A DNA stretch of 64,000 bases from Spirochaetia bacterium (lineage in GTDB: Bacteria; Spirochaetota; Spirochaetia; DSM-16054; Sediminispirochaetaceae). Positions 12,001-51,000 of the stretch are shown here, piece by piece (within the stretch, counting starts at the first letter, position 1; the number at the start of each line of letters is the position of its first letter). The position numbers are program-made. The stretch spans positions 128,001-192,000 of the forward strand of contig JAXHMY010000007.1 of the NCBI GenBank assembly GCA_034520965.1, written 5' to 3'.

Positions 12001-15000
12001 TATGGCAATGCCTGCCAGGACAATACTCTCGGCGGAGATTTTGGTTAACACCGCCAGCAGGAGAATAGCCACGGTGGAGAGAATGCAGAAGAAGAAGGCG
12101 GATAAAGCGACCGCGAAGCTGTTGCTAATAAGAACGGTAGAAGTAGTACCGGTTCCCGCCCCGAAAAAAACGATTGCAAAGGAGGCGCCGAAGGCTGCCG
12201 CGCTGGAAAGACCCAGGGTGTAGGGTGAGGCCAGGGGATTGCGGAGGACAGACTGCATCACCGTACCCGACAGGGAGAGTCCTGCCCCCGCCAGCAGGGC
12301 CGCAATTATCCGCGGCATCCTTACTTCCCAGACGATCCTACCCGGTCCGGTGGCGTCCAGCCGCAGGAGCAACGACAGCACCTCTTTCAGGGGTATCCGG
12401 ATAGTTCCTGCGGCGGCAGAGATAAGCAGCAGCAGCACAAGTATGAATCCGACAGCAGCCAGGAAAAGAATCTTGCCTTTAATGTAGCCCCTGTAAAGGT
12501 TCTGTACTGAGTCCGATGTGCTGCGCATCATGCTCTTAATTAAACCAATCTACCCTGCCGAGTCCGGCTTTCTGATGGGAGATAACCGAATTGTAGTCCA
12601 AATGTACATTGAAAAAGAGTTTCCACATCTCCTCCGCCTTTTTCTTTATATCTACATCACTGTACAGCTGCGGATAGAGGACTTTTCCGATATAGTAGAC
12701 ATTGATCAGCTGATTTTCCCAGTTGGTTCCGTAGTATTTGTACACCAGGGTGGTGTACACCTGCCGGTTGCCGAAAGCCGGGACCTGTTCTTCCAACACC
12801 TTTTGGTGCTGCATAAATCCGGATTTGGACAAGTTCACATTGGCCGCGTCGATAAACGCGTAGTCCGGGGCGGCGGCAATGAGATCCTCCAGAGAAGTCA
12901 TGTAGGGCTGGCGGTTATTGGCAGGATTACTGGGCATGACGTTATCAGTACCGGTAAGGTCAAAGGGGAGGTAATCGCCGGTGGTACGGAGAAGATCGGC
13001 GGGGCCGTAAAACATCATTCCCCCGGCATAGGCCCGCTTGGGGGACTCAAGCCGGGCAGCCCGGCTCTCAATATCTGTAAGAGCTGCGCTGATACCCTCA
13101 ATCAGCTTTTCGGCCCGGTTCGATTTGTCCAGCACTTTGCCTAGGCTTCTGAGCTGATGATAAAACTGTTCCGGGTCATACAGCTCGACATCGGCATTGA
13201 CGGCGAAGACCGGTATTCCCAAGACTGACTGCAGCTGATCCAACTCGCCGACATCTACAGTGGAGGAGATGATAATATCCGGGTCTGCCGCGATTATCCC
13301 TTCATGGTTCTCCGCGCTTCCTATGCTCGGCAGGTCTCTGAGCCCGGGATAGGCCAGGCGGTAGGTGGCTAAAGAAAAGAAATTATTTTCTGTTTTTTCA
13401 CGGCCATGGCCCTGATCTTCCACGGCAATAACTTTATCCACCGCATCTAAATAGCTTATCAGTCGCAAAGCGCCCGCTTCGAGGGCAACTATACTGTCTA
13501 TTTTTTCAGGGACTGAGACTGTGCGTCCCCGCATGTCGGTACTTTCAAAGGCTCCTCCGCTTTCAGGCACTTCCTGCTCCGCCATTGCAAACAGCCCGGC
13601 ATTGATGCAGATGAACAGAAGGACAATAAGTTTTTTACCGATAGATCTGTATTCCATTGTAAAACCTCCGATGAGTTGGTAGTAACACGAATAGTCTAAT
13701 GCGTGCTACTCACAGAGAGGCTACAGGGTATCTTTTTCTCTGTCAATGCGGTGCTCGCCTGCACGCGGTAGGCGGCTATTTTTGTTTTGTGAGTACTTTC
13801 TGCAGTTCATCGGTGGCGGCGATAGTCAGGTCTCCGATTACTTTTCGACTGGAAAGCAGTTTCTCCGCCCAGGCATGCACTTCCTTGCCTTTGCCCTGCA
13901 CAATGAGAACCTTCACACACACCTCTTTGTCTGCATGCAGCTGGAGGTTGGCGGTAATTCTCACGGAAGGAAAGGGCTCTACCGATACCCGGGGCAGGCC
14001 GCTTTCGTAGTGGTACAGCAGCGTCAATGTCCCGAGTACCTGGTGCTCTTCATCTCCGGCGTAGGTGTTGATCGAGTTCCTGCCTGACCAGCCCCCGTAA
14101 GGTTTCCGAGCGGTTCGGATGGCCCTTTTCACGGGTCATCTTATCCAGCAGGTCCACCAGATCGCTGTCCATAGATACCCCGAAGCGAATAGTCTCTCCC
14201 ATACATCCTCCTGGACCAATACTACCACGGATGGGGAGGTTATATAAACTACGGATATCTGGGGTTTTTTTATTGACTAGTCAGACTAGTTAGTTTATAC
14301 TAATACTAAGGGAGGAATGTATGCGTATATGGTCGCTACAGGATGCAAAGGCTCGTTTCAGTGAACTGGTGAATGTGTGCCTGGAGAGCGGGGCTCAGGT
14401 GATAACCCGGCATGGCCGGGAGGCGGTGGTGGTGTTGCCCGCCGATGAATACAGGCGGATCACGGCTCCGAAGCAGAGTTTAAAAGAGTTTTTTGTCGCG
14501 GCGCCGCGGGTTGAGTTACAGATCGATCGCTCCGGGGATACTGGACGGGAGGTGGAGCTGTGATTTTGCTCGATACCTGTGTGATTTCCGAAGTTTTGCG
14601 TCCGGATCCTTCGGCGGAGGTTGTTGAGTGGCTGGACAGCTTGCCGGAAGAGCAGGTGTATCTGCCGGCCTTGGTACTGGGGGAGCTGGAGAAGGGGGTC
14701 GAGCTGCTGCCGGAGGGGTCCAAGCAAACCGCCCTAAGGGTGTGGCTGGAGCAGCTGCGCCGGCGTTTTAGCGGGCGGATTTTGAGTTTTGACGAGGAGA
14801 CGGCGGTACGCTGGGGCGATCTAAGTGCCCGCTGTCAGGGTACCGGCCGGCGCCTGCCGGTGGTGGACGGGATGCTGGCGGCCACGGCTTTGCAGTATGC
14901 AGCCTTGCTGGCAACCCGCAATGTGGAGGGTTTTCGCGAGACCGGGGTAACGCTTATCAACCCCTGGGAGGCGGGATAAGTAAACTAAGGATATAGTAAG

Positions 15001-48000: not shown

Positions 48001-51000
48001 TAAAAATTCTGAAAACCTTTGATGATGCCCAGGGGCTGAAGAGCAAGCGGACGGCGGTGAGCGGGTTTTTTCTGTACGGGCTGCTGAGCGTGCCGCTGGT
48101 GCTGCTGCTGTACGCATTGGCCGGACCGCTGGTGTATCCGATTACCCGCGATTCGGCGGTGCTGGAGAACCTGTTTTTGGTGGGGCCGGTGGAAGAGCTG
48201 GGCAAGTTCCTGGTTTTCTATCTGGTGGCTGTGGGCAGCGGGTCGATCCAGGAGCCCCGCGACGGGGTGCTGCACGCCGCTTCGGTGGGGCTGGCCTTTG
48301 CGGTGGTGGAGAACGTGTTTTACTCGGTATACGGCCTGGAATTGCTGCTGTACCGCTCTATGCTGACCACCGCCGGCCACATGAGTTATGCGGCCATCTG
48401 GGGTTTTGCGGCGGGGGTGTATTTGTACACACGGCCGGCGTTTATGCGGGCTGCGGCAGCGACTGCGGCTTCCCGGGGCTCAGCTGCCGGAGGGGCTGTG
48501 CCGCTTAAGCCTGGTGAATCGGAGAGCTTTGCCGACGGAGCGGCCTACGGGCCATCACTGGTGGTGAGTGCAGTGGCTTCGGCGGCCCTGCTGCACGGTC
48601 TGTACAACAGCTTTCTCGACCTGGGGGCCCTTGGTGCGGCCCTGCTGCTGGATGCCGGGACTGTTCTGCTGGCACTGGTCGGCCTGTCGCACCTGAAGAA
48701 ACTCTCCCCCTTCGCAGAGTTTCCGTTCTCGCAGTACCGCTTGGCTATTCCCCAGTTGAAGGAGGCCCTGCGGCACAATCCGGATAACTTCGTACTGCAC
48801 AAGCGCCTGGGGCTGCACTACATCCGCAGCCGGGACACCGCCAAGGGACGGCGCCACTTGCGACGGGCCTCCCACATCAGGCCGCGCGAGCTGTCCAGCC
48901 GCTTTTATCTGGCGCTGCTGGACTACCTGTTGGCGGGCCCGGGCAGACGAAGCCAAAGACAGCGGGCGAGGGGTGTGGTACCGGTGCTCTGGTCGCAGAG
49001 CAGGCTGATCGGCGGGGCTACACTGCGGCTTGGCAATAAAGCTGCAAACGATCCTGCAGCTGCTCCCGCCGATGAGGCCCGCCAGGCCCTGCACCGCCTG
49101 GCTGTGCGGATACCCCTGAAAAGCCTGAGACAGCTGCGCCGCCAGGTGAAACAGGTTTTTGCGGTACATCCGCGCCGCCGCGAGCTGTTTGAAATATGCG
49201 AGGAACTGGTTGCCGGTAAACGCGGTAAGAGCAGCAGCCCCCTGGACCGTGACGGGGTACTGCACCGCGGCCGGGAATATCCTGCGCACGAGGAGAGGCT
49301 TCGCGGGAAGGCGGCTCAAGAGGGATTGGCTCGCGAGTGTCCGGCCCTCGCGTCCGACACGAAGTCGGGGAGAATTTACTTTCCCGAGCCTCCCCTGGCG
49401 GCGGTGAATCCGCAGCTGGCCGCTAGGAAGATTCGTGCGACCGGCAGGATCATCGAACAGAAACGGCGGGAGATCGGCTGAATAGCAGAACAGGCAAGCG
49501 ACAGTGAACCAGACCTCCGGTAACAGCCGCACTTGTGGTCGACGCTGTGCCGGCACGGATGGGCGCGGATGGAAGGGGGAACAATTCTAAATATCTTGAA
49601 GGCAGGTGCCTCCCGACCTAATATCTGTGTTCATCCGTGTAAATCCTTAGTTAAATTTTTTTCCTGGTTTTTTTGAAGCAGAAGGCGCCTTTTGTGCCTC
49701 TTTTACTATAGGGAGGCGCGTATGCCAGCACACTATGACGCTTTGTTCAGGCGGCTGTTTGAAAAGCCGGAGGTCAGCGCAGATTTTATTCGTAATTATC
49801 TGCCGGCGGGCTATCAGGGGAAAATAGATTTCGAAAGTGCTACTATTGATCCGGACACCTATATCGATGAGGTTCTCCGACGGAATTACACTGATCTGCT
49901 GTACAGGTTTGATAAAAGAGAAGGCGGCGGACCGCTGTATGTGTACCTGCTGTACGACCACAAATCATCACCGGACAAATGGGTGTCCATTCAGCTGCTG
50001 CGTTATATCATGCTCATCTACAGGAAGGAGCTGGAGAAGAAACATCCGCCGACGATACTACCGGAGGTGTTTCCGGTGGTCTTCTATCATGGGACTGAAG
50101 AGTGGACCCATTCACTGCAATGCGCCGATACTATTGATGCGCAGCGCAGAGAACATCTGCCGCATTTTAAGCCGTTTCTGTTTGATTTGAACCGTATTGA
50201 TGATAAACAGCTGCGCGGATCTGTACAAACGGTGGTGGGCTTGCTATCTTTAAAGTATATCAAGCAGCGCTTCACCGAGAGCATAGTTGCTTACCTGCTG
50301 CAAGAGCTGCATCGGCTACCGCGTGAGAGTAGTTTTTTGCATGAGTTCTATATGACTCTGATTAAGTTCAAAGCAGAGGAGGAGCTGCAGAGGTTTCTGC
50401 AGAAGGCCAGAGAGATGAATTACCGGGATATGGAGGAAGATATAATGACGCGCGAACAGAGATTGTTAAAAGAGGGTCGGGCCGAAGGGCTTGAAAAAGG
50501 ACTTCAAGAGGGCCGTGTCGAAGGACTTCAAGAAGGACGAGGTGAGGGCCGTGTCGAAGGCCTGCAAGACTCGTTGAAACGACAACTGAAGAAGAAGTTC
50601 GGTCTGAAAACGGAAGAATCGGTGAAGATAAACCAGATTAAAGAGCCAGCTAAATTAGAATCGGCCCTGGATGAGATAATAACCGCAGAGACCAAGCAGC
50701 AGGTGCTAGACAAGCTGGGCCTGTAGTGCCCCCGCGGATGGGGAGGGGATGAGTGAATTGCGGAGCTAATTCTATTCATTGTAAATAAGTATTAGTGATT
50801 GAGTAGCAGGCTTTTATATTCTTATTAGCCGCTGACTGTTAATAATAGTAAGTTTTAGAAACAGAATTATCTTCTGAATTGATTTTTAATTTCCTCACAA
50901 TTTATTATCTGTGTACATCCGCGTTCATCCGTAGTTTATTAATAATCTTCCCCATCCGCGGTCCGTTCGCCTGCTTTTTAGTGCACAATGCCCTCGGCCG

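Follow-up and report, generated by a model that had tools for sequence, protein, structure and literature searches.

Accessory gene modules jointed by gene-less palindromic element copies in a Spirochaetia bacterium, with a physical link to GxxExxY (PF13366) nuclease genes

Results

In a 64,000-nucleotide stretch of contig C7 of a Spirochaetia bacterium (hereafter the window; JAXHMY010000007.1, positions 128,001 to 192,000), gain, loss and reordering of accessory modules between relatives were found at the copies of a palindromic element, the modules keeping their orientation. The region is best read as a chromosomal hotspot of such modules jointed by gene-less copies of the element. As the best explanation we propose homology-driven exchange at the two ends of the hairpin, probably started by the cutting of a GxxExxY nuclease, an enzyme that we infer; to this reading we give a probability of about 0.45.

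Array of element copies

An array of same-strand copies was confirmed from 14.2 to 51.0 kb of the window (Table 1), consisting of 13 copies that bear the core and four partial copies (at 31206, 35498, 49554 and 50730) rather than the 15 copies counted in the genome-wide survey's note. Searched with at most three mismatches, a 28-nt core was matched at 11 window sites, all on the + strand, and at none in 100 shuffles; a 16-nt core was matched at 13 sites in the window, two on C3, two on C5 and one isolated site on C2. By use of an element profile trained on 47 copies, all from other genomes (threshold E<0.001), 19 matches were detected in this genome (G000): 13 on C7 (+), two on C5 (+) and four on C3 (-). 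Copies are present on all three contigs for which runs had been noted, but the C3 and C5 runs correspond to a single locus in G009 (L052). Gene-less copies were concentrated in two loci, where shuffled modules are jointed. A weak inverted core was also detected at 50919-50960 (profile E 0.098).

As the survey's note had stated, no integrase lies in the array: none of the 14 matches to PF00589 in the genome falls on C7, and a search for serine recombinases likewise found none, leaving C7 with no recombinase. A tRNA-targeted integrative island was rejected: besides lacking a recombinase, C7 has a single tRNA, which maps to contig position 39.8 kb, beyond the limits of the window. The window gave no Rfam match at the gathering threshold, again in keeping with the note, and nine GxxExxY loci gave none at E<=0.1, while scans for sigma-70 promoters and terminators returned hits at chance level only. 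The left flank of the 14229 copy is common to seven copies; the right flank of the array, on the BREX side, was matched in one of nine congeners, and there partially.

Matches to the element (model R1) were found in five of nine congeners, as noted earlier, and in two of the seven other family genomes, for which the note had given none. A sixth congener carries a decayed copy. Given these matches and further copies in other families of Spirochaetia, the proposed genus specificity of the repeat was not supported.

The about 80-nt one-way repeat described previously proved to form the left end of an imperfect palindrome of 150-300 nt, the arms of which are tandem 10-base words of the ACGGAT type, inverted, with AAC at the arm start and GTT at the arm end; one or more reverse arms were identified in 11 window copies. 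At least 30 identical bases are common to 27 of 78 pairs of window copies, with perfect matches of up to 45 nt, and the core is near-invariant over 46 left contexts, partly due to the selection of copies on the core. Among 48 elements, the + strand folds lower than the - strand in 47 when treated as RNA and in 42 when treated as DNA; this asymmetry is treated as an effect of composition, since z-scores against shuffles (seven window copies) were not consistently better on the + strand. A rule of orientation relative to replication was discarded: in G000 the G-rich half lies on the G-skewed strand at both loci, a pattern that G353 breaks.

Table 1. Element copies and modules in the window (window positions).
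Feature	Position	Strand	Remarks
Element copy 1	14229..14260	+	core only; fixed left array edge beside NikR-like gene; core match, profile
Phd/YefM + PIN toxin-antitoxin module	14321..14979	+
FG-GAP and ELWxxDGT repeat proteins + 136-aa ORF	15184..18609	-
Element copy 2	18865..18979	+	reverse arm worn; profile
PAS histidine kinase	19117..21841	-	split over several ORFs
Element copy 3	22309..22340	+	degenerate core; 16-nt core, profile
PrsW protease, transglutaminase, MazEF, two unnamed ORFs	22444..26592	.
Element copy 4	26614..26645	+	core only; core match, profile
487-aa ORF + MFS transporter	26671..29746	+
Element copy 5	29897..30054	+	full hairpin; profile
SnoaL-like gene + 148-aa ORF	30203..31107	-
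Element copy 6	31206..31237	+	interior deleted; full element at same left flank in L077
115-aa ORF + fatty-acid hydroxylase	31294..32471	+
Element copy 7	32505..32681	+
Second MazEF pair, then Rpn 5' stub	33666..34400	+
Element copy 8	34602..34700	+	lacks outer left arm
HEPN + nucleotidyltransferase module	34699..35428	-
Coreless element copy	35498..35591	+	full in L053
SNF2 helicase	35608..38499	-
Element copy	38582..38805	+	two stacked reverse arms
Rpn gene	38867..39544	+	in-frame internal deletion
Element copy	39554..39737	+	full hairpin; z near -3 for both strands
536-aa ORF	39736..41346	-	no family match
Element copy	41443..41654	+	full hairpin
Rpn gene	41716..42650	+	frameshifted
Most complete element	42660..42933	+	core, forward arm, spacer, stacked reverse arms including outermost
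Methyltransferase	42959..43588	-
Element copy	43800..43872	+	left half only
CARF/sigma-54 activator (RtcR/PspF2-like), WYL-transglutaminase, 261-aa ORF	43908..47696	-
Element copy	47836..47909	+	left half only
Second PrsW protease	47955..49481	+
Coreless element copy	49548..49652	+	interior deletion; profile
Rpn gene, intact	49722..50726	+	internal SD+ATG and four-residue repeats (RpnL/RpnS layout as given in the accessible text of PMC10400941)
Last element	50730..50963	+	outer arm, replaced interior, reverse arms complementary to core
GxxExxY (PF13366) gene remnant	50969..51076	+	directly after last reverse arm

Gain, loss and reordering of modules

The modules lie on both strands and reach lengths of at least 4 kb. 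Among relatives, 37 of 52 locus observations showed gene adjacency broken where an element intervenes, compared to 12 of 41 elsewhere; counted by gene pair, it was broken in 14 of 16 with an element compared to 6 of 15 without one. These loci lack independence, and their assemblies are fragmented, so that repeats can cause misjoins. One of the six broken pairs without an element was a filter artefact, four had an element there in at least one relative, and one was without any.

Module order was changed in L008, L047, L051, L069, L073 and contig 18 of run X2. The second PrsW protease stands before the 536-aa gene in L008 and L047, the SnoaL-like/148-aa module sits after Rpn in L051, L069 and L073, and in run X2 the 536-aa gene is followed by the HEPN-nucleotidyltransferase module. 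The 536-aa ORF itself formed the same module in all five observations. The FG-GAP/ELWxxDGT module was missing after PIN in four of four loci of relatives. The end of Rpn joined nine different right flanks in 14 copies, and its start led to its end in eight of nine modules. Both junctions described in the survey's note were recovered, one in L065/L066, where the left flank of the 32505 copy is joined to the 536-aa gene via a 38582-like spacer, and the other in L078, which skips 29.9-31.2 kb and with it the SnoaL-like/148-aa module. The loss and addition of whole modules at the repeat were borne out and, with reordering added, go further than had been claimed. No circular module was found among the 15 joints listed of 49 (contigs only).

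Exchange within the element mapped to two zones, rather than to the simple one-way site previously envisaged. Modules on the left end at the core and modules on the right start at the reverse arms. In 36 of 37 pairs sharing the left flank, identity ended no later than core position +28; of 72 pairs sharing the right flank, none stayed identical as far as the core or the stretch beside it. The spacer was common to 1 of 30 same-left, 4 of 84 same-right and 24 of 960 unrelated pairs, and to 5 of 7 pairs alike on both sides; the interior follows neither flank and is replaced independently. There is therefore no single crossover point. The two zones coincide with the only conserved blocks of the element.

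Link to GxxExxY genes

To our knowledge, GxxExxY (PF13366) is a widespread nuclease family without a known function; it was detected in 64 of 301 Spirochaetota genomes. The hairpin was found upstream of one GxxExxY clade, which spans several Spirochaetia families, in 9 of 30 loci. The corresponding figures were 1 of 30 for the downstream side, 1 of 30 for GxxExxY loci outside the clade and 0 of 300 for shuffles. The other 21 of the 30 clade loci score below 12 bits, which counts against the best explanation. Gene order in the clade is hairpin, structured leader and GxxExxY gene, with the gene outside the arms and beyond the downstream end of the hairpin; of 30 phylum-wide loci, one had 10-mer arms flanking the gene on either side. 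The protein is predicted to adopt a nuclease fold of the PD-(D/E)XK type, and the putative catalytic residues D69, E79 and K81 are invariant in 55 sequences. Its fold matches are generic (best Z 8.3, with Hjc at Z 6.7 among many), and a PDB sequence search with the GxxExxY alignment gave no match.

The remnant that follows the last element of the window was recognized by tblastn with the G003 protein (E 0.001) and by hhalign (probability 95, E 3.6e-8 over 20 columns). It is without leader, start and signature motif, and alone gave no Pfam or NCBIfam match. Further pieces occur in arrays of the genus: L060 carries the start of a GxxExxY gene and L072 the end of one. An intact gene was detected in one of nine congeners and none was found in G000, yet arrays differ between close strains, which counts against the best explanation. 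Elsewhere, Rpn, hairpin and GxxExxY stand in the same order in G334, and element and GxxExxY repeat between Rhs modules in G423. An inverted GxxExxY leader at the end of L082, a single contig-end case, was left out of the counts. Taken together, the cassette-like behaviour read from the array earlier is supported, but the hairpin unit, the GxxExxY link and the terminal remnant had been missed. No description of ACGGAT-type arms or of such arrays was found in the literature searched, mostly open-access text without supplements; the accessible text of PMC4679880 deals with other repeats and leaves GxxExxY unmentioned. Among the papers listed, two contained the name GxxExxY, a single time each.

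Discussion

The full form of the element would comprise hairpin, structured leader and GxxExxY nuclease gene. Two copies in the same direction, in the chromosome or on the DNA of a relative, would recombine via identical end blocks of 20-45 bp and so delete, duplicate or insert a module. The initiating break would be made by the GxxExxY nuclease at the arms or at the extruded hairpin, which is the weakest step; the nuclease would be of sporadic occurrence, as it belongs to the exchanged modules itself. The shuffling of modules at hairpin copies points to integron-like gene shuffling without an integrase. Rather doubtful is the wider proposal of a Spirochaetia-wide integrase-free cassette system, in which a leader-repressed, minimal PD-(D/E)XK GxxExxY protein would cut its own upstream hairpin family and in this way cause modules for toxin-antitoxin pairs, defence and Rhs toxin-immunity functions to be captured, lost or reordered.

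Exchange at conserved blocks is predicted by passive recombination as well, which counts against the best explanation. The same anatomy and origin may come without a dedicated enzyme, relic hairpins having piled up in two islands where RecA or hairpin-stimulated replication slippage shuffles the modules. We consider this somewhat unlikely. It accommodates exchange zones confined to blocks with such long perfect matches, the deletions within the element at 31206 and 49554, and the failure to find an intact GxxExxY gene in most array-bearing genomes, but leaves unexplained how new genes acquire ends, why the core is near-invariant over so many left contexts (in part a matter of selection on the core) and why the hairpin holds a fixed position before an intact nuclease gene in several families. 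A role for the Rpn nucleases as drivers, through RecA-independent recombination, is very unlikely, even though no flank is commoner than an Rpn end (found to the left of 16 and to the right of 15 of 110 copies), the element follows Rpn in G012 too, and E. coli Rpn proteins increase such recombination according to the accessible text of PMC5350276. The same text reports RpnA as non-specific, and Rpn genes are presented in the available part of PMC10400941 as toxin-antitoxin defence genes, unlikely to be transposases. The three Rpn genes of the earlier description were found, but two of them are broken, and a fourth is present as a 5' stub; with one of three copies intact, Rpn looks like cargo. 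Nor was a special link of Rpn to the array supported: the element was matched 12 times in G003, which gave no Rpn match, and the reverse holds for G004 and three of three g4 genomes, where Rpn is present and the element was not matched.

Site-specific recombinases encoded elsewhere in the genome would offer other routes. Host XerC/XerD might recombine the core as a dif-like site, as in pdif modules, with modules leaving and re-entering as circles. A core 11-mer, unchanged in 79 of 110 copies, agrees with the XerD arm of B. subtilis dif (PMC3025954) at 10 of 11 positions; the 6-mer ahead of it is constant in 71 of 110, two genes on C8 appear XerC/D-like from a reading of their sequences, and direct sites would keep orientation. 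We nevertheless judge this improbable, as the left arm ends in GATG or ATGG in 84 of 110 copies and not in dif-type inner bases, the last five bases of the 11-mer are the arm start, exchanges occur at the reverse arms too, and copies in other families are without the 11-mer. A XerC-type arm with an inner palindrome around a 6-bp centre was not found in element copies, and matches to a general dif pattern were no more numerous than in the control; a host dif candidate near the C2 skew switch was set aside, lying inside coding sequence and being matched in one of five genomes. The genome also has a true integron on C3, and IntI was found above the cut-off in 8 of 17 family genomes, so that divergent attC sites served in trans (a CALIN) might be considered, the more so with arms of the form AAC...GTT, at least one reverse arm fitting GTTRRRY in 31 of 66 copies, and cargo rich in toxin-antitoxin pairs. 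This reading is largely refuted already and we give it almost no weight: with a model built on the attC sites of this genome, 24 sites were detected on C3 but not one in 48 array loci, and 17 IntI loci were in turn free of the element. RYYYAAC is not fitted by the core in any of 66 copies, the hairpin travels with neither neighbour, IntI is split here, and two array-bearing genomes, G002 and G009, gave no IntI match.

If exchange is indeed started by GxxExxY cutting, this would be the first function and DNA target for PF13366. Defence islands turn over their genes quickly, for the most part at unknown joints. In this array the joint has been defined as an element, its exchange zones have been mapped and it is linked to a widespread nuclease family, and a direct test is therefore possible with one 126-aa protein and one 250-nt substrate. 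Were recombination passive, the array would still offer a clear example of how a selfish hairpin relic has become a gene-shuffling joint.

Comparison with known systems

REP/REPIN sequences with their RAYT, and MITEs, are palindromic repeats that carry no gene and depend on a small cognate enzyme encoded elsewhere. The present element resembles them in its gene-less palindromes and candidate small enzyme gene, but differs from REP/RAYT in that the candidate is predicted to be of PD-(D/E)XK rather than HUH type and the copies are clustered on the same strand; a Y1 transposase was matched once in the genome, on C1, and no target duplication was seen by eye at the element. With integrons and CALINs (IntI, attI and attC), as described in the accessible text of PMC4889954, the array has in common small accessory modules in fixed orientation, a folding repeat between them, toxin-antitoxin cargo and changing order. 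By contrast to these, it has no attC match and no adjacent integrase, two exchange zones instead of one bond, a hairpin that belongs to neither neighbour, and modules that lie on both strands and can be long. Similarly to the pdif modules of Acinetobacter, so far as these are set out in the available parts of PMC7399989 and PMC12907356, modules are moved between short sites with no integrase nearby, and the core contains an 11-mer like a XerD arm; here, however, there is no XerC-type arm, the sites lie within long hairpins, and exchange extends beyond a 28-bp site. Finally, the Rpn genes share with the RpnL/RpnS defence genes (PF04754) treated in the accessible portion of PMC10400941 the internal start, four-residue repeats, tandem copies and defence-island setting, but here each Rpn gene is one exchangeable module bounded by the element.

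Structure and distribution of the element

What the genome-wide survey's note described as a one-way repeat of about 80 nt proved, in each copy, to belong to a larger element, an imperfect palindrome that spans 150-300 nt and whose left end it forms. This element comprises a fragment of an outer arm, then the core and a G-rich stretch that varies, followed by a forward arm, a spacer rich in A and T, and between one and four reverse arms, a reverse arm being made of three 10-base words. A typical copy folds with a z of about -3 on either strand. Energy was lower for the + strand in 47/48 elements, an advantage that was inconsistent against shuffles and therefore provides no evidence for an RNA; Rfam returned no match to the element, as previously reported.

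The window covers positions 128001-192000 of contig C7 in the genome under study (G000). The 28-nt core matched it 11 times, always on the + strand (0/100 in shuffles). Searching G000 with a profile whose 47 training copies came from other genomes revealed 19 strong copies, of which 13 lie in the window, 2 lie on contig C5 and 4 on C3. The earlier counts for C5 and C3 were thereby reproduced, while the 15 copies claimed for C7 became 13 strong and 4 partial ones. In genome G009 the C3 and C5 runs form a single locus. Named records bearing the core are Spirochaetia MAGs. The element was not genus-specific as claimed: model R1, a profile built from 29 copies (8 of these from the window), matched 5/9 congeners and also 2/7 other family genomes. 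A decayed copy was retained at the same left edge in G008, and the arm word was present in 37/301 class genomes.

Array genes include five toxin-antitoxin-type pairs or defence-like genes (Phd/PIN, two MazEF, HEPN/nucleotidyltransferase and SNF2), together with regulators, proteases, one transporter and Rpn (PF04754) nuclease genes, only one of which is intact in the window.

Features of the array, its relatives and the surrounding genome (positions without a prefix count within the window)
Feature	Position	Observation
Partial element copies	31206, 35498, 49554, 50730	window
Fullest element copies	42660-42933, 50730-50963	core complementary to outer reverse arms
Left flanks of copies 2 and 3	18592-18865, 22204-22309	homologous; trace of past duplication
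19-nt units	29786-29880	four in tandem, immediately left of copy 5
CBASS-like cyclase and Cap15 pair	58393-59781	within BREX operon; stop in cyclase frame upstream of 58393
Partial match to genome's own attC	59693-59781	follows CBASS pair
attC-like sites of true integron	C3, 39-81 kb (L120, L121); C8, 1-5 kb	24 on C3, 4 on C8
Second dispersed repeat, ~150 nt	G000:C3:302271-302420	two short palindromes; dozens of places, most contigs
ABC-transporter/flavoprotein block, 11 kb	G000:C3:303549-314705	at tRNA-Arg 3' end; adjoins element copies in G003, G006, G009
Arm words in other Spirochaetia	G492:C1:360-361 kb; G530; G548	33-56 copies, long tandem stacks or dispersed
GxxExxY leader, 130 nt	L060:215-345	conserved in clade; 12 other loci (alignment A2)
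Inverted GxxExxY leader	L082:5003-5102	past forward arm, contig end; possible inversion or misassembly
ParB-like gene	L044:5854-6624, L082:3932-4702, L234:9636-9920	frequent module in relatives' arrays; element follows in G010; no blastn match in G000

Module shuffling and zones of exchange

Shuffling was analyzed in assembled contigs throughout, using 110 copies of the element that carry the core. G000 contributed 17 of them, and 21 congener and 27 metagenome loci the remainder; the copies were chosen by presence of the core and are not independent of one another. Two or more right partners were found for 14/20 left-flank clusters seen at least twice, and the Rpn end had 9 right partners among 14 copies. 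Modules were steadier than their joints, with Rpn start leading to Rpn end in 8/9 cases and the 536-aa gene (39736..41346) forming the same module in 5/5. Gene pairs of G000 split by the element were broken in 37/52 locus observations compared to 12/41 for other pairs (14/16 and 6/15, respectively, when counted by gene pair). Of the 6 pairs broken without an element, one was a filter artefact (the stretch is contiguous in another comparison), four had an element at the junction in at least one relative and one had none. Order was also altered: PrsW2, a second PrsW gene, lies ahead of the 536-aa gene in loci L008 and L047, Rpn comes before SnoaL in L051, L069 and L073, and on a contig of run X2 the element joins the 536-aa module back to the HEPN module. 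No inverted modules were detected in the locus maps compared with G000. These results bear out the survey's claim that modules are gained and lost at the repeat.

Copies sharing the left flank (≥90%) and differing on the right formed 37 pairs, in 36 of which identity ended at or before core +28. In 72 pairs with a shared right flank, identity started in the reverse arms or beyond (58), in the spacer (3), at the forward arm (2) or after the forward arm of armless copies (2), with 7 unplaced and none reaching the core, under strict drop-off settings that end some flank alignments early. The spacer was common to 1/30 same-left, 4/84 same-right and 24/960 unrelated pairs, and to 5/7 same-both pairs. 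Based on these limits and this sharing pattern, there are two exchange zones, and the interior turns over independently of them. Such a pattern does not arise from a single-bond recombinase acting alone.

Association with one clade of GxxExxY genes

In the window, the last reverse arm is directly followed by a remnant of a GxxExxY (PF13366) nuclease gene. Relatives of the intact protein of G003 were found in 27/401 class genomes. Among 30 loci of the 47 matches, an element of at least 12 bits lay within 500 nt upstream of this clade in 9, compared to 1/30 downstream, 1/30 upstream of other GxxExxY genes and 0/300 shuffles. The proteins concerned sit to one side of a 98/98 branch, in part a result of how the sequences were selected. 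Rpn, hairpin and GxxExxY occur in G334 in the same order as at the right end of the window; in L060 the leader and start of GxxExxY come after a complete genus element, and in L072 the gene end lies within an array.

Element and GxxExxY are repeated between Rhs modules in G423 (L265, G423:C62) and found among Rhs-like ORFs in G353 (L223/L224), and in G389 (L268), where no element match was obtained at 11 bits, three GxxExxY genes are spaced about 5 kb from one another. Repetition of either or both between Rhs C-terminal and immunity-like modules was noted at these loci and at L227 (G395) and L045 (G002:C117).

Residues D69, E79 and K81 were kept in 55/55 GxxExxY sequences, and the predicted structure is a minimal PD-(D/E)XK fold (pLDDT 95.7) with only generic fold matches. 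The leader has a stem with both-side changes in 9/17 predicted pairs (13 sequences) and no Rfam match. By eye, its pyrimidine run might pair with the SD, and the opposite strand shows promoter-like hexamers with a short spacer.

Other repeats and cassettes

The CBASS pair with its partial attC resembles a stray integron cassette left within BREX. A PIN toxin-antitoxin pair is bracketed by two copies of the dispersed ~150-nt repeat.

Mechanism and alternatives

Taken together, modules are bounded by the element and reordered, exchange occurs in two zones, and the hairpin is linked to one GxxExxY clade; this descriptive part is very probably correct. The shuffling array is real and well supported, and a new mechanism is not proven. 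We propose that same-direction copies may recombine via identical blocks and that cutting by GxxExxY might initiate the process. To the whole account, modules, recombination and initiation included, we assign a probability of roughly 0.45. An intact GxxExxY gene was found in 1/9 congeners and none in G000, which weighs against a driving role. Passive recombination is possible, if doubtful; perfect runs between window copies had a median of 21 nt and a maximum of 45 nt, with at least 30 nt in 27/78 pairs.

Enzymes other than GxxExxY are less probable drivers. Consistent with the claim that no integrase lies in the array, no tyrosine recombinase match was found on C7 and no serine recombinase match genome-wide (genome 86% complete). 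XerCD is improbable: a core 11-mer equals the B. subtilis XerD arm at 10/11 positions (arm from an excerpt of PMC3025954), a likeness that stays a lead, but the core has no XerC-type arm and host dif was not found in searches of the genome. Rpn, which the survey had tied to the array, is a still weaker candidate; in the abstract of PMC5350276 it raises RecA-independent recombination in E. coli, but its presence does not track the element, and excerpted text of PMC10400941 assigns Rpn genes to toxin-antitoxin defence and regards their transposition as unlikely. We consider IntI, the integron integrase, scarcely credible. The IntI of the G000 integron, on C3, is split into two frames. An attC reading of the element was rejected, as 48 array loci gave 0 matches to the genome's own attC model and the element was absent from 17 IntI loci.

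A literature search of papers and text open without subscription, supplements aside, found no published account of these arms or arrays; the name GxxExxY was met a single time apiece in 2 listed papers. Compared with integron arrays, as described in part of PMC4889954, the element array works alike but falls outside the integrons by tests of integron membership.
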